DNA of 64,000 bases from Candidatus Poribacteria bacterium (GCA_965205065.1 CBDBFT010000001.1:5102569-5166568); one strand, 5' to 3'. Shown: positions 1,776 to 19,613, counted from the first letter of the stretch. The notes: generated by a model from the sequence alone, not told the origin. Program-made: numbers and translations.

Positions 1776-2456
1776 ATGAAACTTGAATTTCAAAATGTGG
1801 TTGATCTGTCTTATGTTGTAGATGAAAAGAGTCCTCGTGAGTTGCCGATTGATCCAGTTAGAATCTATGATCAGGCTACGTTAGAAAAAGATGGTTATTT
1901 TGAAAGTCGGGTTGATATGTCTGGACATTGCTCCACACATATTGACACGCCGTGTTTGATGTACCCCGATGGTTATACTGTTGCAGAAATACCTAAGGAA
2001 AAACTGACAGGACATGCAGTTCTCATGGATTTCTCTGCTATAAAAAAACCGAAAGAGGCGGTTACGGCAAAAGATGTTGAAGACTGGGTCAATGTAAACG
2101 GTGAAATCCCAAGTGCCAGTATTGTGTTTATGCGTACCGGTATGGATAGGTACGTTTATCAAGAGAACTTCAATCAGGAATGGATCGGCTTTAGTGAAGA
2201 TGCGGCTGAATTACTTGTTCAGAAGGGTATCAAAGTCATCGGTACAGATGCTTGCAGTATAGATTCTGTTGCGGGACATCCACCGTTGCATGATGGACTG
2301 CCTCCAGCACATCTGGTATTTCTCGGTGCTGGTATCCCTCATGTTGAGGATTTGTGCAATTTAAGCAAATTACCGACGCATTTCTATGCAGTCATTGCAC
2401 CTCTTAAGTTGGCACGTAGTTCCGGAGCACCGACTCGGGTTTTTGCATTCGTGTAG
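1776..2456 (+). CDS. cyclase family protein (arylformamidase / kynurenine formamidase-like)
   Basis: Carries the HxGTHxDxPxH metal motif (SGHCSTHIDTPCLM) and the overall cyclase-family pattern. An AAGAATTAATG ribosome-binding context precedes the start. Confidence 0.7.
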   Translation: MKLEFQNVVDLSYVVDEKSPRELPIDPVRIYDQATLEKDGYFESRVDMSGHCSTHIDTPCLMYPDGYTVAEIPKEKLTGHAVLMDFSAIKKPKEAVTAKDVEDWVNVNGEIPSASIVFMRTGMDRYVYQENFNQEWIGFSEDAAELLVQKGIKVIGTDACSIDSVAGHPPLHDGLPPAHLVFLGAGIPHVEDLCNLSKLPTHFYAVIAPLKLARSSGAPTRVFAFV

Positions 2457-2501
2457 ATCCTTGTTAGCACTTCCAGACGAAGACTGCACCCTAATAGAAA
2501 A

Positions 2502-3971
2502 ATGGAAATGTTTATTCCAGACTCACTCTTAAAGACGTTACAGGAGATAGGTGAAATCGGAGGAGCAGATGCATATCTTGTAGGGGGGTCTGTCAGGGAC
2601 CTAATACTGAGGCGAGAAACTTACGATATTGACATTGTGGTTGAAGGAGATGCAATCAGCGTTGCAGAAAGGGTGAAGACAAAATGGAATGGTGAAATAC
2701 AGATCCATCATCAATTTGGCACAGCAACAGTAATAACTGGAAACCTAAACTATCCAAAGATAGATTTTGTCACTGCCCGTCGTGAAACATATCAACAACC
2801 TGCAACGTTACCTAAAGTAGAACCGGGGACACTGTCGGATGACCTGCTGCGAAGAGATTTTTCAATTAATGCATTAGCGATGTGTATAAATTCAGGTGAT
2901 TTCGGTCATGTAATTGATATTACTGGAGGAATTGAAGATTTAAAGACGGGTACGATTAGAGTCTTACATAGAGGTAGTTATATTGATGATCCAACCCGGA
3001 TTTTTCGTGCTTTTAGGTATGCGGGACGTTACAACTTTGGTATCAGCGAAACTGACTCTGACTTGATTAAGGAAGCATTACCTTTAATATCAGAACTCAG
3101 CGGTGAGAGAATACGGAATGAATTGGATAGGATATTACTTGAAGATAAAGCAACGGAGATTGTCCGATTGCTATCTAAATTTGGCATTTATGAGGTGATC
3201 TTCAAAGATTGGAGAATCTCTCCGAGCCACATAAATGGTCTGAAAACTGCTGAAAATGCACTTAAGTGGTCATCTATACATCTTAAAGACGAAACTTTAC
3301 TGAAGAAAAATATAAGATGGATGGCATTTTTCGGTTTGGACGATTCTGACTGCTTGAAAACGTATCACATTGAAGCTTTATGTTACAGGCTCGTATTGGA
3401 TCATCAACTTCACCGTATCGCTGGTAATCTGAAAGAAACTGTATGTGAAGAAGTATCTCTAACTGTGCTTAGAGGTGTGTTTGAGAAAGTTGGACACGGT
3501 TTGGCAGATAATACAACTTTTGATTTTATCAACGGAAAATGGTTTTTAGTTGACTCTGACAATAAGAACACTTATATATATGATGAAGGTGATATATTTA
3601 AAGTACAGACACCATTAGCAACATATTCTGGACTTAAGAGTGCGCTGCGTAAGATAGTTGAAGATACGCGTGATAGCGACATATATTATCTGCTTCATGA
3701 ATTTCCTTTAGAGACTCTTGTGTTAGGATTTAATGATCGGAATTTATCTGAGTTTCATCGTGATTGTATCGGTTTATTTCTCATGAAGCAACGTGATGTG
3801 CGACCGATAATAACAGGTGATGATTTGATTCAATGGGGAGAAACACCTGGTAAGGATTTTCAGAAACTGCTGCGTTATCTTTTTGCTGCGCAATTAGACG
3901 GTAGGTTCTCTTCCAAAGAGGATGGTTTCAGAGTGTTTCAACAGTATGGGTTTCAACAATATGGACAATAA
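2502..3971 (+). CDS. tRNA nucleotidyltransferase / poly(A) polymerase family protein (CCA-adding enzyme-like)
   Basis: Pol-beta head-domain motifs GGSVRDLIL, DIDIVV and RRDFSINALAM. Confidence 0.7.
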   Translation: MEMFIPDSLLKTLQEIGEIGGADAYLVGGSVRDLILRRETYDIDIVVEGDAISVAERVKTKWNGEIQIHHQFGTATVITGNLNYPKIDFVTARRETYQQPATLPKVEPGTLSDDLLRRDFSINALAMCINSGDFGHVIDITGGIEDLKTGTIRVLHRGSYIDDPTRIFRAFRYAGRYNFGISETDSDLIKEALPLISELSGERIRNELDRILLEDKATEIVRLLSKFGIYEVIFKDWRISPSHINGLKTAENALKWSSIHLKDETLLKKNIRWMAFFGLDDSDCLKTYHIEALCYRLVLDHQLHRIAGNLKETVCEEVSLTVLRGVFEKVGHGLADNTTFDFINGKWFLVDSDNKNTYIYDEGDIFKVQTPLATYSGLKSALRKIVEDTRDSDIYYLLHEFPLETLVLGFNDRNLSEFHRDCIGLFLMKQRDVRPIITGDDLIQWGETPGKDFQKLLRYLFAAQLDGRFSSKEDGFRVFQQYGFQQYGQ

Positions 3972-8806: not shown

Positions 8807-10711
8807 ATGAGTACTCTGATTATTGCTGTTCTAAGTTTCATCGGTTTTATCGTTGCTTACAATACTTATGGTAAGTGGTTAGCACGGAAGATTTTCGGTT
8901 TAGATCCTGAAGCGAAAGTACCGAGTCAAGAACTAAAAGATGACGTTGATTATGTTCCTACCAAAAAAGAGATCATCTTTGGTCACCATTTCACGAGCAT
9001 TGCAGGTACAGGTCCGATTGTAGGTCCTGCTATTGCTGTTTTTTGGGGTTGGTTACCAGCACTTCTGTGGGTTGTGCTCGGTTCTGTTTTTATCGGTGCT
9101 GTTCATGACTTCGGTGCTCTTGTCGTTTCGCTTCGCAATCGTGGACAAAGTGTAGGTGAAGTCGCTGGTAGGATGATTGGTCCACGTGCGAAATTTCTAT
9201 TTCTGATCGTCCTCTTTATGGGTTTGACGATTGTCCTCGCTGTTTTTGGCTTAGTCATAGCCTTTATTTTTTCTCTATATCCTGAATCTGTCCTATCTGT
9301 CTGGGTTGAAATCCCGCTTGCTGTTGCTATCGGTATTTGGATTTACCGAAAGGGTGGCAATATCCTTATCCCTTCCATTGTTGCTCTGGGTATTATGTAT
9401 ATTGGCATGGCTGTCGGTGCGTATGTTCTTCCGATAGACTTAAGCAAATGGTTGGGAATTGACCTAATCGGTTCTTCCTTCCTGAACGTAGTGGTAATAT
9501 GGACGTTAGTGCTGTTCGTTTACTGTTTTATTGCATCCGTGCTTCCAGTATGGACACTTCTACAACCGCGTGATTTTATCAATAGTCATGAGCTGGTATT
9601 AGCACTTGCCTTATTAGTGCTTGGACTTGCAGTTGCGGGATTTACAGGAGAAGCTGACCTGTTTTCATCGGCACCAGCTATTGCGAAAGACATTCCACCT
9701 GATGCCCCACCGATTTGGCCTTTCCTATTCATTACCATTGCTTGTGGTGCTGTCAGCGGGTTTCACTGCATGGTGAGTTCGGGAACTTCAAGCAAACAGG
9801 TTGCTTCAGAAGAAGATGCACAATATGTTGGATACGGTGCAATGCTTCTTGAAGGTGGACTTGCTGTTGTTGTCATCATAGCATGTTGTGCGGGGATAGG
9901 TATGGGTATTTTCACTCGCACACCAGACCCTGTAAGTGCTGGGGGTTATAGGTTCCAACCTGTACTGATAGATGGTAGTTCAGAAGCAGTTACAAAACAC
10001 GATGCTTGGCGAGACAGATATGCTTTAGAAACAAAGCAGTATAAAGAAGATGGAACTCCAGATGTTAAGGGTGGGTGGGGGAGCCTTAGTTTGGGTAAGA
10101 AGGTCGGTGCATTTGTTGAGGGGGGTGGTAATTTCCTTGCTGCACTCGGTATTCCGCTGAAAATGGGAATAGCAATTATGGCAGTGCTTGTTGCAAGTTT
10201 TGCTGCGACAACATTGGATACTGCCACAAGACTGCAACGTTATGTGGTACACGAACTCGCGCAGACTGTTAACTTTCGCCCTTTGATGAACCGATACATA
10301 GCGACAGCGTTTGCTCTAATTCTTGCTGCTGCTGTAGCACTTCTGCAGGGACCAAGGGGACCGGGTAGCGGTGGACTAACACTTTGGCCCCTATTCGGTG
10401 CTACGAACCAACTGCTTGCGGGTTTAGCATTTATGGTCATTGTTTTCTATCTCATTCGTCGAAATAAACCTATATGGTTTGCTTTCATTCCTATGGTTGT
10501 TATGCTAATTATGCCTGCGTGGGCAATGTTACACCAGATGTTTAATCCTACAACAGGATGGCTTTTTGAAGGTAAATATCTGCTTTTTGTTTTCGGTTTA
10601 ATTGTTGAAGGTTTGCAATTTTGGATGATTGTTGAAGGTGTTATCGCATGGCGAAATGCTCGGGGTAATTATCCCGAACTTCCACCTTTAGAGACAATAC
10701 CTGCTGATTGA
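8807..10711 (+). CDS. cstA: carbon starvation protein A (CstA family peptide/pyruvate transporter)
   Basis: Conserved GHHFTSIAGTGPIVGP...GWLPALLWVVLGSVFIGAVHDF block. About 16 TM helices. Confidence 0.85.
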   Translation: MSTLIIAVLSFIGFIVAYNTYGKWLARKIFGLDPEAKVPSQELKDDVDYVPTKKEIIFGHHFTSIAGTGPIVGPAIAVFWGWLPALLWVVLGSVFIGAVHDFGALVVSLRNRGQSVGEVAGRMIGPRAKFLFLIVLFMGLTIVLAVFGLVIAFIFSLYPESVLSVWVEIPLAVAIGIWIYRKGGNILIPSIVALGIMYIGMAVGAYVLPIDLSKWLGIDLIGSSFLNVVVIWTLVLFVYCFIASVLPVWTLLQPRDFINSHELVLALALLVLGLAVAGFTGEADLFSSAPAIAKDIPPDAPPIWPFLFITIACGAVSGFHCMVSSGTSSKQVASEEDAQYVGYGAMLLEGGLAVVVIIACCAGIGMGIFTRTPDPVSAGGYRFQPVLIDGSSEAVTKHDAWRDRYALETKQYKEDGTPDVKGGWGSLSLGKKVGAFVEGGGNFLAALGIPLKMGIAIMAVLVASFAATTLDTATRLQRYVVHELAQTVNFRPLMNRYIATAFALILAAAVALLQGPRGPGSGGLTLWPLFGATNQLLAGLAFMVIVFYLIRRNKPIWFAFIPMVVMLIMPAWAMLHQMFNPTTGWLFEGKYLLFVFGLIVEGLQFWMIVEGVIAWRNARGNYPELPPLETIPAD

Positions 10712-10778
10712 AAAGGGGTAAATTGAAGACATTGAAAACTAACTCAGTACTAAATTTCGCCCTTAGGAGAACACACAA

Positions 10779-11066
10779 ATGAACCGTACAAATAGACAGC
10801 ATAGGTTAGATCATCTGCGGCTCCGTGAAGCTGAAGGAATTCTAACAAAGCAAGAGCAAGTAGAACTTTCTGCCATCTTCGCTGATTTAGATGCTGAGGA
10901 AGCAGAGGCATTGAAACCAACGAAGGAAAAAAGCAGAAAATTACACGAAGAGAAAGCGGAGCTGGAAGAAACTGCCTTGCAATTACAAGAAATCGTTTCT
11001 GAACATAAGCAACTGTTGACTGATGCTCAGTCATACCTGACAGAACTCCGAATCAGAAACATTTGA
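10779..11066 (+). CDS. hypothetical charged coiled-coil protein
   Basis: ORF with a GGAGAACACACAAATG ribosome-binding context downstream of cstA. No recognisable domain, and it is not YbdD-like. Confidence 0.35.
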   Translation: MNRTNRQHRLDHLRLREAEGILTKQEQVELSAIFADLDAEEAEALKPTKEKSRKLHEEKAELEETALQLQEIVSEHKQLLTDAQSYLTELRIRNI

Positions 11067-11154
11067 AAAGCATAAAATTACAATGTAAAATATATCATAA
11101 AGTCCTGATTCAAACTATAACTTGTTCAAAAATATTTGTAAAGTACAAAAATGC

Positions 11155-11172
11155 AATGTATAATATAACAAT
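11155..11172. promoter_or_regulatory. candidate Zur/Fur-family operator (imperfect TGTaTAATATAACA palindrome) overlapping a -10 element
   Basis: aatgtataatataacaat resembles the gammaproteobacterial Zur box AATGTTATAATATAACATT with one base missing. It sits 60 bp upstream of the Cys/His-rich gene that heads the metal island. Confidence 0.2.
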
Positions 11173-11235
11173 AGTTGGAAGTCAAAATGTTGAAAGAAAA
11201 GAAACTACTCAATCAAGAAACATTGTTAACACAAC

Positions 11236-11637
11236 ATGTTTAGATTTATGAGATTTGATAAACTGGGCGCAAAACTCTTAATCCTATCTGGATTACTCTG
11301 TTATATAACTCTGTTTTGTTTTTCGCAGTTAGTGCATGAGCATACTTGTTATCAACATGGACAGGAGAATTGTAGCCTTGGGCATCAAAATTGTAGCCTT
11401 GGGCATGAACATTGTAACCATAAAAATGAAGAAGAACATAGTTCTGATTGTAATAAAAGTTGTGCAGCTTGTGCTTTTGTCAACACCCAGTTCATATTTG
11501 AGTATCAACACAACACCTTCTCATACAATAGACCTTGCGATGGTAAAGTTATAGTTTCTGAGATATGTTTCATTGATTCAATCCCCATCCGTAATCTTCA
11601 CAGCCGTGCTCCACCTTCCCCCAAATACGCAAATTAG
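11236..11637 (+). CDS. secreted Cys/His-rich repeat protein (putative metal-binding)
   Basis: Signal-like N-terminus, then the tandem peptide ENCSLGHQNCSLGHEHCNH encoded by a nucleotide tandem repeat at 11372-11419, plus additional Cys pairs. Confidence 0.5.
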   Translation: MFRFMRFDKLGAKLLILSGLLCYITLFCFSQLVHEHTCYQHGQENCSLGHQNCSLGHEHCNHKNEEEHSSDCNKSCAACAFVNTQFIFEYQHNTFSYNRPCDGKVIVSEICFIDSIPIRNLHSRAPPSPKYAN

Positions 11638-12031
11638 ATTATAAATCGTAAAGTATATAGTTACTTGAACCTTTCTGTAACAAAACTTGTCAGTTTGTAA
11701 AGAAACGGAACACTACCTAACAGGTTGTGCGACAACATAAGTAGTCTGTTCGGTTTGCTAAACGCAGAGATCAGCGTGTGCAGGTAAATCTATAATCCAC
11801 ATATATTTGAGATAGAAAGTATTAGAAACAGAAGTCTGACATAATTTCTTTAGGATTCTGTCAACACGTACTGTTTTCGTAATTCTGTATCTGTTTCTAA
11901 GGTTATTAGTATTCGTTTTAATTTCAATTCGTTTTATTTTTATGCGTCTTGCCAATACTGTAATGAAGTTGGTATAAGACTGTACTGCTGTGTGTTTTCA
12001 TATCCACAGCGACTTTATATAGGAGAATATA

Positions 12032-12646
12032 ATGTCAAATTATTTTTATTCGCGCGACAATTCATTTAATTTTTCTCAGATTATTTTAGTTGTCTTAGTA
12101 GCTATACTCCCATTATTCGGTGGGTGTGGTGAAGATGACAACCCAATAGTTGATGGTGACGACCATGACCACGACAATGGGGATGCCCCCATTCACGCCG
12201 ATGTTGACGGTTTCATTTTAGAAGTCAATGAGACAGAGGTTTATCGTCAGTTTAAAGAATCCCAAACAGGTGACGGACTCACGGTTAAAGCTGGTGAAGA
12301 GATTGAGGTCCATGCAGTATTTCTTGATGCAAACGGCAAAGAGGCACACCTCCATGAAGTAAAATCCACTGATGAACATGGTCATGAGGAAGAATTCGCC
12401 TTGGGCATAACGGGATACGATGAGACTATTATCACGATCCATCTGGACCACGATGAACACGACCACGGTGATGAAGACAACGGTGATGAAGACCACGATG
12501 ACAACGGTGATGAAGACCATGGTGACGAGTTACCGTTTGGTCTTGAGGGATTGAAAGCAGGTAAAACGGAAATCAAACTCCAACTGCTTCACGGGGATCA
12601 TCCCGATTTCACGGGGGCATTTCCGATACCGGTAACTGTTGAGTAA
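12032..12646 (+). CDS. His/Asp-rich periplasmic lipoprotein (putative zinc-binding)
   Basis: Lipobox LFGGCG. Repeated DHDHDNGD and HDEHDHGDEDNGDEDHDDNGDEDHGDE tracts. An AGGAGAATATAATG ribosome-binding site precedes the start. Confidence 0.6.
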   Translation: MSNYFYSRDNSFNFSQIILVVLVAILPLFGGCGEDDNPIVDGDDHDHDNGDAPIHADVDGFILEVNETEVYRQFKESQTGDGLTVKAGEEIEVHAVFLDANGKEAHLHEVKSTDEHGHEEEFALGITGYDETIITIHLDHDEHDHGDEDNGDEDHDDNGDEDHGDELPFGLEGLKAGKTEIKLQLLHGDHPDFTGAFPIPVTVE

Positions 12647-12656
12647 GGGGGACCCC

Positions 12657-14924
12657 ATGTTAAGCACTTGTGCTTGTTCGGATAGGTCTCTCACGGTAGG
12701 GATGCTTAAAAAGCGTCCCTGCCTATTCGTGCTGGTGTCTGGGATAATAGTCTGTCTATTTTGCTATTTAAAGGATTCCCAAAGTGCTTCAAACACAACG
12801 TGCCCTCTGGAGGGAGAGGTTGTTGAAACACGGAGCAATACCCGACTTGAGGGGGTTACGGTCCGTATTAAGGGACTTGATAAGCACGTCCGAACCGATG
12901 CAAACGGTCGGTTTAAGTTTGATACCGTGCCGGAAGGACATCAGACGCTGGAGTGTATGAAAGTCGGTTATCAACGGTTTGAACAGGTAATTGATGTGAA
13001 TACCTCTTCCCCTTATCTCCAGATTGAACTGGAGACGTTGTCGTTTCAACTGCAGACGATCAGGGTATACGGTTCAAAACGCACGGTTTCAAAGTTTGAG
13101 GCAACAACCGACTTAGCATTGAGTGAAGCAGAACTCCAAAGACGGTTAGGTATGACCTTGGCGAACACGTTGGCGGATGAGACAGGAGTTTCCCAACGGA
13201 TGATGGGACGGGCTATTTCACGTCCTGTTATTCGGGGATTGGGCGGTGATAGGCTGCTAATTCTTGAAAACGGCGAACGCACAGGGGATAAATCCGGCTC
13301 CAGTGCCGACCATGCCGTATCTATTGACCCGACGACTGCTGAGGGGGTTGAAATTACGCGCGGTCCCGCATCGTTAATTTACGGATCAAGTACGTTGGGT
13401 GGCGTTATTAATGTCAAAAGTAATCATATACCGCAAATTCTACCGAGACAGCTTAATATGCATCTAACGTTCCAAGGTGAATCTGTAAACTCAGGTTTGG
13501 CTGGAACAACAGGATTTACGATCCCGATTGGTGATTTTGCAGGCAATGTAGAATGGAATCGACGTCTTGCATCTGACATACAAACGCCGATAGGTGTACT
13601 CAAAAACACCTCCCTTTCAAATGTAAATTTTTCAGGTGGTGCTTCGCTGATTAAGCCGTGGGGTTTCATCGGTGCCTCTGGTAGTCGTTATAGATCAGAT
13701 TACGGCGTTCCCGGCTCACCCGAAGGACATATTAGCGGGGTTAACATAGAACTTGACAAGCAACGTTATGAAGGACAGATGGAGTACCGCTTCAATTCAA
13801 CAATACTTGAAAAGGTAAAACTCCAGACTGCCTATACGCGTTATCAGCATCAAGAGTATGAGTCCAACGGGAGACTTGGTGTTGAATTCGGTCTGTTAAC
13901 CTACAACGTATCAATGATGGCTCATCTATATGACAACGCGATTGCAGGCGTTTGGTGGGAATACCGAGATCATGCTACAGACGGATTCTACTGGACACCG
14001 CACACCCGTGAATTTGCGTTGGCAGGATTCTATCTAAACCAGCGTAACTTTGACAAACTCACCTTACAGGGGGCTATCCGTTACGACATTAGACGTTCGG
14101 AACCGTTCAGGCCTGGGGCAGTTGTCCGAGCAGGAAAAGTCCAACGTCGCGATTTCAACGGTCTGTCGGCTGCTACCTCTGGAATTTACCATTGGACAGA
14201 TAATCTGAGTACTGGGGCAACCCTGATGAAGACGTTTCGCGCCCCGGGAATTGAGGAACTTTTCAGCGATGGACCTCACTTGGCTGTCTATTCCTACGAA
14301 ATCGGCAATGTTGAACTGGGTCCCGAAGACGGATACGGTACTGAACTCTTCGTCAAATATGCAGACGACAGGTTCAGACTCAATCTTGCCATTTTCAGGA
14401 ATCAGATACAGAACTATCTCGTTCCGACGAACAGCGGAGAAAAAGAGTGGGGCAGCGGCGCAGCAGGATGGTTATGGATTTATCAATACATGGGAAACGA
14501 CGTAGTGATGGATGGTGCTGAAGTCCAGATAGGTGGTGAAGTACTACCGCAGATACATCTTCAGCTCAATATGAGTTACGTCAACGGAACGATTAAGAAC
14601 AATGGACGACCGTTGGAGCGTGTCCCACCCCTCAACGGTAAATTCGTCATAAGTTACACACCTGCACCGTTGCATTTGTATGTCGCGTCCCGTTTCTCAG
14701 GCAGCCAGAACCGGCTTGGTGAATTTGAGGAACCGACAGATGGCTATCTCGTCTATGATATCGGAACTTATCTCAATTTTTCGCGCTTGAAACTTGATAA
14801 CATGATCGTTTTCGAGATTGAAAATCTCTTTGATACAACGTATCGTGAACATCTGTCCCGCATCAAAGCCGCAATGCCGGAACCAGGACGGAATGTAAAA
14901 CTCTTGTATAAACTTAATTTTTAG
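12657..14924 (+). CDS. TonB-dependent outer-membrane receptor with N-terminal carboxypeptidase-regulatory-like domain (putative ZnuD-like metal receptor)
   Basis: CarbopepD_reg-like segment (TDANGRFKFDTVPEG). Plug-domain motifs (RGLGGDRLLILENG). C-terminal aromatic residue (LNF). The AAGGGGG ribosome-binding site before the ATG at 12657 fixes the start; an ATG at 12702 is the alternative. Confidence 0.8.
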   Translation: MLSTCACSDRSLTVGMLKKRPCLFVLVSGIIVCLFCYLKDSQSASNTTCPLEGEVVETRSNTRLEGVTVRIKGLDKHVRTDANGRFKFDTVPEGHQTLECMKVGYQRFEQVIDVNTSSPYLQIELETLSFQLQTIRVYGSKRTVSKFEATTDLALSEAELQRRLGMTLANTLADETGVSQRMMGRAISRPVIRGLGGDRLLILENGERTGDKSGSSADHAVSIDPTTAEGVEITRGPASLIYGSSTLGGVINVKSNHIPQILPRQLNMHLTFQGESVNSGLAGTTGFTIPIGDFAGNVEWNRRLASDIQTPIGVLKNTSLSNVNFSGGASLIKPWGFIGASGSRYRSDYGVPGSPEGHISGVNIELDKQRYEGQMEYRFNSTILEKVKLQTAYTRYQHQEYESNGRLGVEFGLLTYNVSMMAHLYDNAIAGVWWEYRDHATDGFYWTPHTREFALAGFYLNQRNFDKLTLQGAIRYDIRRSEPFRPGAVVRAGKVQRRDFNGLSAATSGIYHWTDNLSTGATLMKTFRAPGIEELFSDGPHLAVYSYEIGNVELGPEDGYGTELFVKYADDRFRLNLAIFRNQIQNYLVPTNSGEKEWGSGAAGWLWIYQYMGNDVVMDGAEVQIGGEVLPQIHLQLNMSYVNGTIKNNGRPLERVPPLNGKFVISYTPAPLHLYVASRFSGSQNRLGEFEEPTDGYLVYDIGTYLNFSRLKLDNMIVFEIENLFDTTYREHLSRIKAAMPEPGRNVKLLYKLNF

Positions 14925-14932
14925 AACTGTAG

Positions 14933-14964
14933 GATGGAGAATGTATTTTATCATTCCCTATCCT
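14933..14964. promoter_or_regulatory. 32-bp near-palindrome ggatggagaatgTATTTTATcattccctatcc (candidate metalloregulator operator) upstream of znuA-like gene
   Basis: GAATG/CATTC arms around an AT-rich core, directly between the TonB receptor stop and the lipoprotein start of the binding protein. It falls inside the over-extended track ORF starting at 14941. Confidence 0.2.
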
Positions 14965-15063
14965 CTATTTTCTAAGGAGAAAAAATTGAAAAGACATATT
15001 AACCACGAATTAGCAGATTCGACTGGTGTGTATCTGTGTCGCGTGCGCGATCCACGAAACATT

Positions 15064-16005
15064 ATGTGGAGAATATACATTTCAGTGTGTTTAATAGGTA
15101 TATTGGTATGGTCTGGCTGTGATCCGAAGGGACAACAGGAAACTGCAACTGACGATAATCTGCGCGTTGTTACCACGATCGGCATGATCACTGATATTGT
15201 TAAAAATGTCGGAGGTAAGCGCGTTGATGTGATCGAGATAGTGAAACCTGGCGTAGACCCACACTTTTACAACCCGACACCTAAAGACGTTCAAAAGTTC
15301 GGTTCAGCAGACATAATCTTCTATAACGGGCTACACCTTGAAGCAAAAATGGCGGACGTCCTTGAGAAGATGTCGGAGGATAGGTTGACAGTCGCAGTAA
15401 CAGACGGTGTAGATCGGAGTCAACTGCTAACACCTTCAGAATACGAGGGACTCTACGATCCGCACTTATGGTTTGACGTGAAGCTTTGGATGCAAGCAGT
15501 AGGAAAGGTTCGCGATACACTCAGTGAATTCGATGCCGATAATGCTCCGCTGTACCGAAACAATGCTGAACACTACCTAACGAAGCTCAAGGAACTTGAT
15601 GAATACGTAAAGTCGCAAGTGGAAGGTGTGCCATATCAGCAACGCGTACTTGTGACGGCGCACGACTGTTTTAACTACTTCGAAAAGGCGTACGGGTTTG
15701 AGGTGCGCGGATTACAAGGTATTAGTACTGCGACAGAAACCGGTATCGCTGATGTCCAGGATTTGGCTACGTTTATTGTGGAGCGACGTATCCCTGCTAT
15801 TTTTGTAGAGTCATCCATCTCTTCACGAAGTCTTGAAGCGGTGAAAGCTACTGTGAAATCAAAAGGATTTGATGTTACGATCGGTGGTGTACTGTTCACA
15901 GATGCTATGGGAGACGAGGGGACACCTGAAGGTACATACATCGGTATGATCCGACATAATATTGATACGATTGTCCACGCTTTGATTGGGCAATCGGAGT
16001 TATAA
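15064..16005 (+). CDS. metal ABC transporter substrate-binding lipoprotein (ZnuA/TroA/MntC family)
   Basis: Lipoprotein signal MWRIYISVCLIGILVWSGC. DPHFY and DPHLWFD metal-site motifs. Start moved to the ATG at 15064. Confidence 0.8.
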   Translation: MWRIYISVCLIGILVWSGCDPKGQQETATDDNLRVVTTIGMITDIVKNVGGKRVDVIEIVKPGVDPHFYNPTPKDVQKFGSADIIFYNGLHLEAKMADVLEKMSEDRLTVAVTDGVDRSQLLTPSEYEGLYDPHLWFDVKLWMQAVGKVRDTLSEFDADNAPLYRNNAEHYLTKLKELDEYVKSQVEGVPYQQRVLVTAHDCFNYFEKAYGFEVRGLQGISTATETGIADVQDLATFIVERRIPAIFVESSISSRSLEAVKATVKSKGFDVTIGGVLFTDAMGDEGTPEGTYIGMIRHNIDTIVHALIGQSEL

Positions 16006-16221
16006 ATCTTTTCGTGACCTTGATAAAAAAGAAGCAGCTTTTATGAGAGAATAAGGCATGTCTGGCAGAACTGAAGACGAATCTACGTGATCGCTAAAGG
16101 TGTACTGACGCATGGAAGAAGAAATGTATTCCTGCACACGAGATGGCTGCAAAGTGGCATGAACTTGTTGAATACCTGCTTTCACAGTTTGAAAGCAATT
16201 GATAAAGGAGGCTATATAACA

Positions 16222-16482
16222 GTGCAGAATATTTTCAATTCACAACAAAAGAGTGACCCACGGCAACTTGCTGAAGTCAAATCGTGGGTCTCACAAGCAT
16301 TTGATCTATCAGAGGATGTCTCCATAATGATTACTCAGTTGGAATGCACCGAAGAAGGATGTCCGCCTATTGAAACGGTCATTGCAATCCTGGAGACACT
16401 GGGAAAGCCCCGACAATACAAGATTCACAAACCACTGTCGGAGGTTAAGCAGACAGACATCGTTAGCTTGACCGCTGACTAA
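16222..16482 (+). CDS. small hypothetical protein with CxEEGC pair, embedded in metal island
   Basis: An AAAGGAGG ribosome-binding site 9 nt before the GTG at 16222. Sequence ...LECTEEGCPPIETVIAIL... The longer track ORF (from 16087) has no ribosome-binding site. Confidence 0.3.
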   Translation: MQNIFNSQQKSDPRQLAEVKSWVSQAFDLSEDVSIMITQLECTEEGCPPIETVIAILETLGKPRQYKIHKPLSEVKQTDIVSLTAD

Positions 16483-16500
16483 ATTCAATAAGGAGAGAAA

Positions 16501-17853
16501 ATGAACACAGGAATGCTACACAATCAAGTACCCGTCACTGTGTTGACGGGCTTTTTGGGGTCTGGTAAGACCACACTTCTCAACCGTATTCTCACAGAAA
16601 ACCATGGCAAACGTATCGCTGTCATTGAAAACGAGTTTGGTGAGATTGGCGTTGATAATGATTTAGTTATCGGTGCTGAAGAAGAGATCTTTGAGATGAA
16701 CAACGGTTGTATCTGTTGCACGGTGCGCGGTGATCTCATCCGTATTTTGGGGAATCTGATGAAACGTCGCGATAAGTTCGACTACATCATGGTTGAAACC
16801 ACAGGACTTGCTGACCCTGGACCGGTTGCTCAGACGTTCTTCATGGATGTCGAAATGCAGGAGAAACTGCAACTGGATTCCGTCACAACGTTGGTTGATG
16901 CCAAACACATCTGGCAGCACATTGATGACAGCGACGAGGCACGTGAACAGATCGCCTTCGCCGATGTCATTTTGTTGAACAAGATTGACCTTGTGACCGA
17001 GGATGAGTTAGAACAACTGGAAGCCAGAATACGCAATATGAACGCTGCAGCGAAGATTTATCGCACAGAAAACGCTGTGGTTGAAATGGACAAGATCCTC
17101 AATGTCGGCGGATTCGATCTGGACCGGGCGTTGGAGGTTGACCCCCAGTTTATGGAACCGGAGTATCCGTTTGAATGGGGTGGTGTTTATGATCTTTCGG
17201 TAGGTACGCATGAGTTGGTTCTACAAGAAGGTCCTGACCCATCAATGAACATCGCGTTGGTGCCTGTCAATGATTCAACTGATGAAGCTTTGGAGGAGGC
17301 TGTTGAACCAGTCGTTATAGTATTCTCCGATGATGAGCATGAGCTTTCATCGGGTGGTACCCTTCAACCGAGTGGACAACTCATCGAGTTGGAACTCACA
17401 GCGGACGAATTACGTTTTGACGTGCAGATTGACCGCGCTGGTGCTTACGCTCTGTTTACCGAACATCATCCTGACGAATTTGAAGCGCAACTCATGAGCA
17501 GCGGTGCCGTTGTCAAGCCAGCTATTGAACGCGAGTTTAAGCCAGACCACGAACATGATGAAGAGGTCACATCGGTCGGTATCACAACCCCCGGAGACCT
17601 TGATCCTGACCGTCTGAACGATTGGATTGGTGATCTGCTTCGGACAAAGGGTGTTGACATTTTCCGCATGAAAGGTATTCTGAGCATCAAGGGGCAGCCA
17701 GAACGATTTGTCTTTCAAGGTGTGCATATGCTTTTTGATGGTCGTCCAGATCGTCCATGGGGTAGTGAACCACGCTACAATAGTCTCATCTTCATCGGAC
17801 GCAACCTTGACCGGACAGAACTGACGGAAGGGTTTGAATCATGTCTCGCTTGA
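16501..17853 (+). CDS. COG0523 G3E-family GTPase (ZigA/YeiR/CobW-like zinc metallochaperone)
   Basis: P-loop GFLGSGKTT. GCICCTVRGDL CxCC metal motif. His/acidic tail (KPDHEHDEE). A GGAGAGAAAATG ribosome-binding site precedes the start. Confidence 0.8.
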   Translation: MNTGMLHNQVPVTVLTGFLGSGKTTLLNRILTENHGKRIAVIENEFGEIGVDNDLVIGAEEEIFEMNNGCICCTVRGDLIRILGNLMKRRDKFDYIMVETTGLADPGPVAQTFFMDVEMQEKLQLDSVTTLVDAKHIWQHIDDSDEAREQIAFADVILLNKIDLVTEDELEQLEARIRNMNAAAKIYRTENAVVEMDKILNVGGFDLDRALEVDPQFMEPEYPFEWGGVYDLSVGTHELVLQEGPDPSMNIALVPVNDSTDEALEEAVEPVVIVFSDDEHELSSGGTLQPSGQLIELELTADELRFDVQIDRAGAYALFTEHHPDEFEAQLMSSGAVVKPAIEREFKPDHEHDEEVTSVGITTPGDLDPDRLNDWIGDLLRTKGVDIFRMKGILSIKGQPERFVFQGVHMLFDGRPDRPWGSEPRYNSLIFIGRNLDRTELTEGFESCLA

Positions 17854-18896
17854 ACAACTTGAACAAACGCTTTTTTCAGCCTTCTCAACTGCACGAGAAT
17901 TGGACTTCGAGCATCAGCGACCACGTCATTGATCTGGCGTGGTCACCTGATGGCAGATACGTTGCTGCCGCGTCGGTTCTCGGTCCGGTGACAATTTTTG
18001 AGGGTCATCGGCGATCAGTTATTCATACCTTTGAAGGGCATGAATTCGGTACAATGTCAATCGCTTGGCGTCCAGACAGCAAAGTGCTGGCAAGTGCAGG
18101 ACAGGACGGGAAAATCCGGTTGTGGGATATGACAAGCGGGGAAACGACGCATTCGCTTGACGGAGGTGCAGCATGGGTTGAGCATCTGGCTTGGAGCAGC
18201 GGGGATGAACCGCTACTCGCCTCTGCCGCTGGTCGTAAGTTGAAACTCTGGAACGCTGTTGGTGATCTTATTTGTGAGTATCCTGATCATCAGAGTACCG
18301 TTGCTGGCATCCAGTGGAAACCGGATGCAATGCAACTTGCCTCAATTGCCTACGGCGGTGTTAGTCTATGGGAACCAGAACATTCGGATGCTGTCCGACA
18401 ATTGGAATGGAAAGGTTCCTCACTATTGATTGAATGGAGTCCAGACGGTAAGCACATCGCCACCGGAGACCAAGATTCGACTGTACATTTCTGGATTATG
18501 TCTACAGGTGAAGACTTGCAAATGTACGGTTATCAGGCGAAAGTGCGAGAACTCTCGTGGGATCCCACGAGTAGATATTTGGCTACCGGAGGGGGTGAGG
18601 AAGTTACGGTGTGGGATTGTTCTGGTCGCGGACCTGCTGGTACCAGACCCATTTCACTATCCGGTCATCAGGATTTACTCAGCGTTGTGCGTTTTCAACA
18701 TCGCGGAGAGTTACTTGCCTCAGGCGGTGGCGACGGTCGTGTTTACGTTTGGAAATTGCGAGGCAACATTCGTTCTATGGCAGTGCATGAAGCCACTCTT
18801 TCAGCAGGTGTTACAAATCTTGTTTGGTCACCGAATGACCAATATATTGCTGTTGGTGACGAATCGGGTGGCGTGAGCGTTTTTTCGATCTCTTGA
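17841..18896 (+). CDS. WD40 repeat protein, translationally coupled to COG0523 GTPase
   Basis: Seven WD40-like blades (LAWSPDG..., WRPDSKVLASAGQDGKIRLWD, ...). Its ATG overlaps the GTPase stop by 13 nt. Confidence 0.7.
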   Translation: MSRLNNLNKRFFQPSQLHENWTSSISDHVIDLAWSPDGRYVAAASVLGPVTIFEGHRRSVIHTFEGHEFGTMSIAWRPDSKVLASAGQDGKIRLWDMTSGETTHSLDGGAAWVEHLAWSSGDEPLLASAAGRKLKLWNAVGDLICEYPDHQSTVAGIQWKPDAMQLASIAYGGVSLWEPEHSDAVRQLEWKGSSLLIEWSPDGKHIATGDQDSTVHFWIMSTGEDLQMYGYQAKVRELSWDPTSRYLATGGGEEVTVWDCSGRGPAGTRPISLSGHQDLLSVVRFQHRGELLASGGGDGRVYVWKLRGNIRSMAVHEATLSAGVTNLVWSPNDQYIAVGDESGGVSVFSIS

Positions 18897-19183
18897 TTAT
18901 TACTGCCTTCATGAAGACTTTGATAAACAACGATTTCTTGACATTGGCGGGTATCCCTGCCGAGGCGTTACAGTATCGGTTAGGAAATCGTTCGGCGTTA
19001 GAGTGGGTGGTGGATCAGTATCGTGTCAAAACAGACAAACGGAGCGGCATTGTGAACGACCCGAATCGCGCGGATGATGAAACCTACATCGTAGATCTGA
19101 TTCGGAAAGTTATCAGTGTGAGTTTGGAAACGGTGGAGATTGTTGAGCGGTTGTCTGCGTTGGATATTGGCGCGGAGGTATAG
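18893..19183 (+). pseudogene. remnant of the C-terminal tail of a type ISP/IIG restriction-modification enzyme
   Basis: 96-aa ORF: YRLGNRSALEWVVDQYRVKTDKRSGIVNDPN...YIVDLIRKVISVSLETVEIV. This matches my memory of the conserved C-terminal tail of LlaGI-like helicase-methyltransferase fusions. It has no ATG start (TTG) and overlaps the WD40 stop. Confidence 0.35.
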
Positions 19184-19205
19184 TATTTTCCCACACGACT
19201 ATTTT

Positions 19206-19234
19206 TTGACAGTCGGTTTTTTGTATGGTATACT
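19206..19234 (+). promoter_or_regulatory. strong sigma70 promoter TTGACA-17-TATACT for higB operon
   Basis: ttgaca at 19206-19211 and tatact at 19229-19234, preceded by a short hairpin (cgact...agtcg) and a T-run. Confidence 0.45.
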
Positions 19235-19286
19235 AATTAGGCGAACAACCCGACATGACTGACTAAAAGGCGGATCTTGTTTACAA

Positions 19287-19613
19287 ATGGATATTATAGG
19301 TGCCGAAAAACTGGACGAATTTGCACAGAGACATCCAAATGCCAGATCCGCACTTAACCGGTGGTTTAGATTAATAGATGAAGGAACCTTCCAATCAATT
19401 GTAGAATTGCGCGAAACGTTTCCTCACGCCGATCCAGTGCCAACACGTTCAGGGAAGTTATCACAAACAGAAGGAAGAACAACCTTGACAGTTTTCAACA
19501 TTGGCGGTAATAAAGCACGCCTTACAGCATTTGTGCACTATAGAAAGCAAACTGTCTCTATCAGAAGGGTAGAAACGCACGCCGAATATGACAAAAGGAA
19601 CTTGAGGAGGTAA
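19287..19613 (+). CDS. higB: type II toxin HigB (E. coli YgjN-type mRNA interferase)
   Basis: Motifs ETFPHADPV and FNIGGNKARL plus HAEYDKRN, as in YgjN-type HigB. A GGAGG ribosome-binding site for the downstream partner lies in its 3' end. Confidence 0.7.
   Translation: MDIIGAEKLDEFAQRHPNARSALNRWFRLIDEGTFQSIVELRETFPHADPVPTRSGKLSQTEGRTTLTVFNIGGNKARLTAFVHYRKQTVSIRRVETHAEYDKRNLRR

Follow-up and report, generated by a model that had tools for sequence, protein, structure and literature searches.

Within a 64-kilobase (kb) window of the genome of a sponge symbiont (Candidatus Poribacteria), the window being the whole stretch of DNA analyzed, seven co-oriented open reading frames (ORFs) on the + strand span positions 11236 to 18896. 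They encode, in order, a His/Cys-rich protein, a His/Asp-rich probable lipoprotein, a TonB-dependent receptor, a TroA-type metal-binding protein, a small Cys-Cys-His protein, a COG0523 GTPase, and a WD40 protein. An earlier sequence-only reading had described these seven co-oriented genes, and all are present. Pfam and NCBIfam profile searches, which that reading had proposed, assign four of the seven proteins to families: the receptor (TonB receptor domains), the binding protein (PF01297), the GTPase (cobW/CobW_C), and the WD40 protein. The remaining three, encoded by the first, second, and fifth genes, matched no Pfam or NCBIfam family, lax thresholds included. Close homologs of the cluster proteins carry the label Candidatus Poribacteria, and the identical gene order was found again in dozens of related genomes; the arrangement is therefore not due to chance. 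We propose that the cluster is probably a two-module metal-supply unit, with an envelope uptake module and a cytoplasmic chaperone set, and that the metal is most likely zinc.

The first gene (11236 to 11637, +) encodes a 133-amino-acid (aa) protein that begins with a hydrophobic segment, either an anchor or a signal. Its His/Cys-rich stretch consists of three 21-nucleotide (nt) tandem units (11358 to 11420), and the protein is the positional counterpart of a 118-aa His/Cys protein in other Poribacteria. The second gene (12032 to 12646, +) encodes a 204-aa His/Asp-rich probable lipoprotein, in which a Cys follows the hydrophobic leader (LFGGC, read by eye). This protein ends in AFPIPVTVE and has no PEP-CTERM tail, which sets it apart from the ZepA exoprotein as described (signal peptide, PEP-CTERM, and an H-X2-9-H-F/Y-H motif; PMC10957091). 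A kinship of the lipoprotein with the insert of about 130 aa in the GTPase was considered and dismissed (BLASTP E value, 0.56). An inverted repeat, GCTGTG-N12-CACAGC (11987 to 12010, +), lies about 20 nt 5' of the lipoprotein gene's ribosome-binding site and has no Rfam match. Most related loci have a hairpin of other sequence there (e.g., GGCACA-N5-TGTGCC or AGCACG-N4-TGTGCT), located about 45 to 20 nt 5' of the lipoprotein start codon. This variable hairpin might serve as an operator or fold as an RNA stem. An Rfam scan of positions 10700 to 19700, with E values up to 1, returned no RNA families.

The receptor ORF (12639 to 14924, +; 761 aa) overlaps the lipoprotein ORF by 8 nt and contains Pfam CarboxypepD_reg, Plug, and barrel domains. 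Its best match in the PDB is ZnuD (4rdr; 117.5 bits, with the next best at 42.6 bits), and ZnuD is also its best NCBIfam model (NF038289), with a score of 184.6 bits, compared with a cutoff of 950. Judged by these scores, ZnuD is the closest characterized relative of the receptor, yet the receptor is not a ZnuD equivalog. Unlike ZnuD, the zinc-piracy receptor of Neisseria, it has an N-terminal CarboxypepD_reg domain and is preceded by a gene for a His/Asp-rich lipoprotein.

The fourth gene (15064 to 16005, +) encodes a cluster A-I metal-binding protein of the TroA type (PF01297; E value, 2.8e-82), probably a lipoprotein. Its ORF opens at 14941, and the likely true start is at 15064 (MWRIYISVCLIGILVWSGC). 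As in the cluster A-I proteins TroA and AztC/ZnuA, the metal-site motifs are in register: the closest solved relative, Treponema pallidum TroA (PDB 1toa), matches over the full length with 300 bits, and the motifs DPH, DPH, TAHD, and TDAMG align with it and are identical or near-identical (FTDAMG versus FSDAMG). The metal ligands in TroA are His, His, His, and Asp.

Unlike in TroA and ZnuA systems, TroBCD or ZnuBC genes do not adjoin the binding-protein gene, and neither an ABC-3 permease nor a ZnuC homolog is encoded near it. A tblastn search of all 64 kb recovered no ZnuB, MerC, or Fur/Zur homolog (the Zur query being poribacterial), and the sole ZnuC-like match was a generic ATP-binding cassette (ABC) ATPase at 54.1 kb with 24 to 28% identity. 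This agrees with the earlier statement that ZnuB and ZnuC are not adjacent and that the window has no zur gene. In most Poribacteria, the gene order is receptor-MerC-binding protein, which suggests that passage through the inner membrane usually falls to a MerC-family protein in this group. In the window, merC has been deleted down to a 5' stub of 32 codons (14941 to 15036, +; MYFIIPYPLFSKEKKLKRHINHELADSTG) that is fused in frame to the binding-protein ORF and matches the N terminus of MerC in the related locus L002 (56% over 32 aa; E value, 3e-7).

Between the binding-protein gene and the small gene lies the remnant of another conserved gene, encoding a protein of 197 aa. The intact gene in the nearest relative (L003:5751-6344) has no Pfam or NCBIfam match, and the window copy (16058 to 16205, +) is a pseudogene that has cleanly lost about 449 internal nt and reads MSGRTEDEST followed by a stop. 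The sequence-only reading had noted a small CxEEGC gene in this region; the gene is present, and its extent differs. A 131-aa ORF was rejected as the small-protein gene; it takes in part of the 197-aa pseudogene remnant as its N-terminal portion. The real gene (16222 to 16482, +) encodes 86 aa, with a GTG start and the sequence AAGGAGG 9 nt upstream.

The 86-aa protein is cytoplasmic and carries the invariant motif L-x-C-x-E-x-G-C-P-P-I-E-T-V-I ... Q-Y-K-I-H-K (CTEEGC in the window copy), which includes two invariant Cys residues (C-x4-C) and an invariant His. When 1.84 billion cluster representatives were searched with a profile, 1275 clusters matched at an E value of ≤1e-3 and 461 at ≤1e-10, giving a family of at least 1275 clusters at 50% identity. 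Among the distant members that were looked up, "hypothetical protein" was the only name. In an AlphaFold2 model (predicted local distance difference test [pLDDT], 84.9), the protein has an alpha-beta-beta-beta-alpha topology, in which the loop of the first hairpin bears the two Cys residues and strand 3 ends with the His. A fold search against the PDB gave nothing at an E value of ≤0.001, and the top match was the ribosome hibernation factor HPF (E value, 0.05; template modeling [TM] score, 0.52).

The COG0523 G3E GTPase (16501 to 17853, +; 450 aa) matches cobW (PF02492; E value, 1.4e-61) and CobW_C (PF07683; E value, 1.7e-24) and scores 209 bits against YjiA (PDB 1nij). Its Walker A motif (GFLGSGKT) and CxCC motif (GCICCT) are invariant across 9 orthologs, and ahead of the CobW_C domain is a conserved insert of about 130 aa with an HEH motif (PDHEHD). 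Orthologs are 69 to 73% identical between phyla, are all about 450 aa long, and keep both the insert and PDHEHD. The GTPase falls below the NCBIfam equivalog cutoffs for ZigA (192.7 bits versus 600), CobW (200.9 versus 332), the YjiA-like model PRK11537 (248.2 versus 361), and Mrf (31.9 versus 375).

The WD40 gene (17841 to 18896, +; PF00400 E value, 1.9e-43) encodes 351 aa. The sequence-only reading had its ATG overlapping the GTPase stop; the ATG lies 13 nt inside the GTPase gene (ATGTCTCGCTTGA), with GGAAGGG upstream, and this layout indicates that WD40 is translationally coupled to COG0523. The N terminus (MSRLNNLNKRFFQPSQLHENW, read by eye) has no hydrophobic leader and no signal peptide. 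An AlphaFold2 model (pLDDT, 90.4) contains 32 strands forming 8 blades and superposes on 8-bladed WD40 proteins with TM scores of 0.85 to 0.87, matches that are generic. Orthologs are 51 to 55% identical over the full length between phyla. The periplasmic zinc chaperone AztD, which passes zinc to AztC (PMC6689063), is likewise a beta-propeller; its gene lies close to that of a zinc-uptake binding protein and often close to COG0523 genes. Unlike AztD, the WD40-repeat propeller described here has no signal peptide and is coupled to a cytoplasmic GTPase, and AztD was not among its top sequence or fold matches.

The association of GTPase and WD40 genes is tight. A WD40-family profile scan with one genome per species gave 378 relatives, and the best 78 loci were from Poribacteria (74 loci) and Chloroflexi (4 loci). 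Among the 70 of these 78 loci with enough upstream DNA, COG0523 is directly upstream of WD40 in 69, mostly with an overlap of 7 to 13 nt, and the same holds for 39/42 metagenome loci. A separate metagenome scan seeded with the small protein gave 80 loci, 35 of them flanked by 3 kb or more on each side; in 32/35, the orthologous GTPase and WD40 genes both lie within 3 kb of the small-protein gene, in several gene orders. The pair was also found behind znuC-znuB-znuA in a further Chloroflexi genome, in a planctomycete (divergent from znuACB, with a Fur-family gene after the pair), in Acidobacteria, and plasmid-borne in Paraburkholderia sprentiae (WSM5005) and Pantoea agglomerans (BIM B-2003, plasmid pPA-MXU-125), where it is annotated only as "GTP-binding protein" and "WD40 repeat" or "hypothetical" protein. 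The planctomycete and proteobacterial examples lack the small protein, which is thus a frequent, not a universal, third partner. The sequence-only reading would have been refuted by, among other outcomes, a WD40 gene with its own promoter and no co-conservation with COG0523 in related genomes; the two genes are tightly co-conserved, so that the pairing is not an incidental neighborhood.

The same reading had considered a COG0523 protein with a beta-propeller not to be a described pairing, which is incorrect. Haas et al. (2009; BMC Genomics 10:470, PMC2770081) described the clustering of prokaryotic COG0523 subfamily 5 genes with WD40, znuABC, and creatinase genes, several of them downstream of predicted Zur sites, and predicted Zur-boxed znuCBA-COG0523-5-WD40(-sapB) operons in the alpha-proteobacteria Bradyrhizobium japonicum, Nitrobacter, and Rhodopseudomonas palustris. 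Further subfamily 5 neighbors given in that work are HoxN cobalt transporters and the SapB membrane family, and most eukaryotic COG0523 proteins fall in this subfamily (PMC2770081). The pairing has thus been on record since 2009, and the window cluster is a further example; full-text literature searches found no later functional study of the WD40 partner. The window cluster resembles the 2009 clusters in having the GTPase gene followed by the WD40 gene with a metal transporter adjoining, and Zur boxes occur in sister Poribacteria and Pantoea. It differs in that a TonB receptor, a His-rich lipoprotein, and a TroA-type protein are encoded instead of ZnuABC or HoxN, in that the window has neither a canonical Zur box nor zur, and in the 86-aa Cys-Cys-His partner, which is not named in the 2009 list.

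Gene context also bears on the affiliation of the GTPase. With WD40 directly downstream and a receptor and a TroA-type binding protein upstream, the neighborhood is that of subfamily 5, and from this context the GTPase appears to belong to this subfamily, that is, to the ZNG1 clade. Human ZNG1 is among the eukaryotic members.

The contexts of the three conserved genes (small protein, GTPase, and WD40) in relatives point to zinc as the most likely metal. In 12 sister poribacterial loci (L022:2317-6015, L033, L037, L047, L048, L049, L054, L057 to L060, and L063), a Zur-like gene, for which Zur is the best NCBIfam model (124 bits), is divergent from znuA2. The order in this alternative arrangement is zur, divergent from znuA2-Zn-ribbon-His-rich COG0523 paralog, then the 197-aa gene, a gene of the 122-aa type (see below), and the small protein-COG0523-WD40 genes, so that two COG0523 paralogs stand side by side in these genomes. 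An invariant box, ATGTTATAATATAACAT, occurs in the intergenic regions of these loci, with a second box at the zur start, and its core is the same as that of the proteobacterial Zur box quoted by Haas et al. (PMC2770081). The zur gene (in L022, positions 2317 to 2814, minus strand) and the perfect ATGTTATAATATAACAT boxes (in L047, positions 1486 to 1502) are situated a few kb 5' of the three conserved genes, and the lipoprotein homolog in one of these loci (L048) stands directly behind two canonical Zur boxes. Among the 35 metagenome loci found through the small protein, ZnuABC adjoins the three genes in 9 and a Fur-family gene in 15, and the cobalt/nickel importer CbiMNQO is present in 5. A perfect palindrome, TTATGTTATAACATAA, separates an ABC transporter from the GTPase-WD40 pair in Pantoea. 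In a palindrome search of divergent znuA/COG0523 intergenic regions from other phyla, Fur-type boxes were clear for Pantoea and two metagenome loci; the planctomycete group showed no more than promoter-like conservation.

Three side observations concern these relatives. A Cys-rich protein of about 122 aa (VCxGCCCG ... GCLGPCDLxNVV) is encoded beside the three genes in 10/35 metagenome loci and in Acidobacteria; examples are L085:5541-5909, L081:5572-5982, and L054:5641-6192, and none has a Pfam or NCBIfam match. In a Chloroflexi locus, an uncalled Fur-family ORF (L001:2258-2700; MCHNTTEINRQLRKRGYRVTPQRQLILDAV...) lies between znuB and the gene for a 789-aa ZnuA and is preceded by the palindrome TTGTTGCATCAATTTGCAACAA. 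The gene after WD40 in Paraburkholderia sprentiae (L169:8343-8690) encodes a 115-aa protein made almost wholly of His-rich repeats (HHAHHNHEHGPNCGH ... HLHHPHGDH).

The label "Zur-type" that the sequence-only reading gave to the island does not carry over to the window. The poribacterial box ATGTTATAATATAACAT has no ungapped match at ≤3 mismatches of 17 anywhere in the window, and a looser pattern, TGTTATNNTATAACA, matches elsewhere in the window at chance level only. Upstream of the cluster are two copies of a 45-nt direct repeat (11053 to 11097 and 11126 to 11170, +; 80% identical), both of which are also found in the nearest relative, L003. Each copy contains a sigma-70-like promoter (TTGAAA-17-TAAAAT and TTGTAA-17-TATAAT). 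A degenerate Zur-box-like sequence, ATGTATAATATAACAA (11156 to 11171, +), one base shorter than ATGTTATAATATAACAT, overlaps the -10 element of the second copy, and a weaker one-base-short copy, ATGTAAAATATATCAT (11083 to 11098, +), overlaps the -10 region of the first. With one base deleted from the box, these are the only two matches in 64 kb, with 1 and 2 mismatches, respectively. A Markov simulation of the 169-nt promoter region gave a P value of about 0.001 to 0.002 for such matches; this comparison was made post hoc, and TATAAT is already part of the canonical box. The right half-site of the one-base-short box differs among the nearest relatives, and canonical boxes are confined to loci of the alternative type, with none upstream of the three conserved genes in window-like loci. 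The one-base-short sequences are candidate Zur sites at most, and Zur control of the window cluster is unproven.

Several observations weigh against the reading of the cluster as a zinc-supply unit. In addition to the missing match to the Zur box within the window, no canonical box lies upstream of the receptor module in any poribacterial locus that carries this module, and the window itself has neither a zur gene nor an inner-membrane importer (tblastn). The receptor, the binding protein, and the GTPase each fall under the NCBIfam equivalog cutoffs. The window copy is also decayed, with merC lost and the 197-aa gene broken. Finally, TroA-type proteins are not zinc specific and bind manganese and iron too, and cobalt or nickel genes accompany the three conserved genes in some lineages.

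The last two points belong to the best-surviving alternative, in which the three genes serve cobalt or nickel (or manganese), the GTPase loading Co/Ni into a client enzyme and the uptake module importing that metal. A CDF transporter and CbiMNQO directly precede the three genes in Acidobacteria and in one further lineage, in keeping with the CbiMNQO genes in the metagenome loci. NicO is encoded near the pair in a planctomycete, an RcnR/FrmR-like repressor near the pair in Pantoea, and HoxN cobalt transporters next to subgroup 5 (Haas et al., PMC2770081); the Cys-rich 122-aa neighbor in 10/35 loci also fits. On the other side, the Zur/ZnuABC context is commoner than the cobalt/nickel context, the closest relative of the receptor is ZnuD, and the CobW equivalog model scores 201 bits against its cutoff of 332. 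The third metal site of the binding protein is TAHD, as in TroA, whereas manganese-specific cluster A-I binders have Glu at this position. We regard service to cobalt, nickel, or manganese as unlikely. The earlier description of a zinc acquisition and zinc-sparing unit thus stands as one of metal uptake plus metallochaperone, with zinc the best-supported metal; the metal is not settled, given CbiMNQO in Acidobacteria.

If the cluster is a two-module metal-supply unit as we propose, the His/Cys-rich membrane-anchored protein and the His/Asp-rich lipoprotein would capture metal at the cell surface, the lipoprotein acting as the metal-capturing partner of the receptor. The ZnuD-like TonB-dependent receptor would then take the metal across the outer membrane, and the TroA-type protein would receive it in the periplasm. 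MerC having been lost here, an inner-membrane carrier encoded elsewhere in the genome would complete uptake. In the cytoplasm, the small Cys-Cys-His protein may deliver the metal to the GTPase at its CxCC site, the WD40 propeller may dock that enzyme onto one or more clients, and GTP hydrolysis would drive metal insertion under metal scarcity.

The cytoplasmic steps are proposed because of the precedent of G3E GTPases in UreE/UreG/UreFD and HypA/HypB. As in UreE/UreG/UreF-UreD and HypA/HypB, a G3E GTPase, a possible small metal-binding donor, and a possible docking or scaffold protein are encoded together. Unlike with membership in these nickel systems, there is no sequence relation past the GTPase fold, and the likeness is one of mechanism by analogy. 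We therefore offer only tentatively the further idea, possible but rather doubtful at present, that the small protein, the GTPase, and the WD40 protein could form one three-part metal-insertion machine, a zinc counterpart of UreEFG/HypAB in which the small protein would be the donor and the WD40 protein a client-selecting adaptor.

The folds of the small protein and the propeller would also allow the three genes to act on the ribosome during metal starvation, the small protein being an RNA- or ribosome-binding factor. A precedent exists in Mrf, a mycobacterial COG0523 protein that recruits a hibernation factor. The topology of the small protein is dsRBD-like, its best, nonsignificant fold match is HPF, and the best superposition of the WD40 model is with Rsa4/NLE1, an 8-bladed factor of ribosome assembly (TM score, 0.87). 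Both fold matches are neither significant nor specific, however, and any 8-bladed WD40 protein fits the propeller; the score against the Mrf model is less than one-tenth of its cutoff, and no ribosomal genes are nearby. A ribosomal role is thus very improbable. That the WD40 protein is merely a neighbor of the GTPase, or a eukaryote-like repeat protein for interaction with a sponge host, is hardly credible: some sponge-symbiont papers do treat WD40 proteins together with eukaryote-like repeat proteins, and large TPR and BNR-repeat proteins are also encoded in the window, but the propeller lacks a signal peptide, its gene begins within that of the GTPase, its orthologs remain more than 50% identical across phyla, and the near-constant pairing, which extends to lineages that are not known to be symbionts of sponges (Ktedonobacteraceae, Acidobacteria, Planctomycetes, Pantoea, and Paraburkholderia), argues against both an incidental neighborhood and a host-interaction role.

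COG0523 GTPases are the least understood metallochaperones, with few known clients, such as METAP1 for ZNG1 and FolE for ZagA. To the pairing on record, the present comparison adds that it is near-obligatory over at least six phyla or major lineages, with a GTPase that is about 70% identical between phyla, and that a small Cys-Cys-His protein outside the Pfam and NCBIfam families often accompanies the two as a third partner. If the GTPase does belong to the ZNG1 clade, the bacterial three-gene set could reveal how clients are recognized in that clade. Experiments should be feasible in culturable carriers, the pair being plasmid-borne in isolates of Pantoea agglomerans and Paraburkholderia sprentiae. 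For the genomics of sponge symbionts, at least this WD40 protein may be better viewed as a housekeeping component of metal homeostasis than as a host-interaction "eukaryote-like protein."

Relative to its relatives, the window carries three deletions, which affect merC, the 197-aa gene, and a Type ISP restriction enzyme gene. The last is a 1032-aa ORF in L003 (L003:9668-12766), of which the last 96 codons are left in the window as a C-terminal fragment (18893 to 19183, +; PF18135); the deletion boundary abuts the WD40 stop codon exactly. A HigB toxin gene (19287 to 19613) follows this fragment. The G+C fraction is 0.46 to 0.47 across the cluster (positions 12001 to 20000), compared with about 0.39 to 0.42 in most of the flanking sequence. 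Farther downstream, positions 24166 to 26961 encode a 931-aa fusion of sigma-70 regions 2 and 4 with BNR/Sortilin-type propeller repeats, and a similar gene lies downstream of WD40 in L002 (15879 to 18692).

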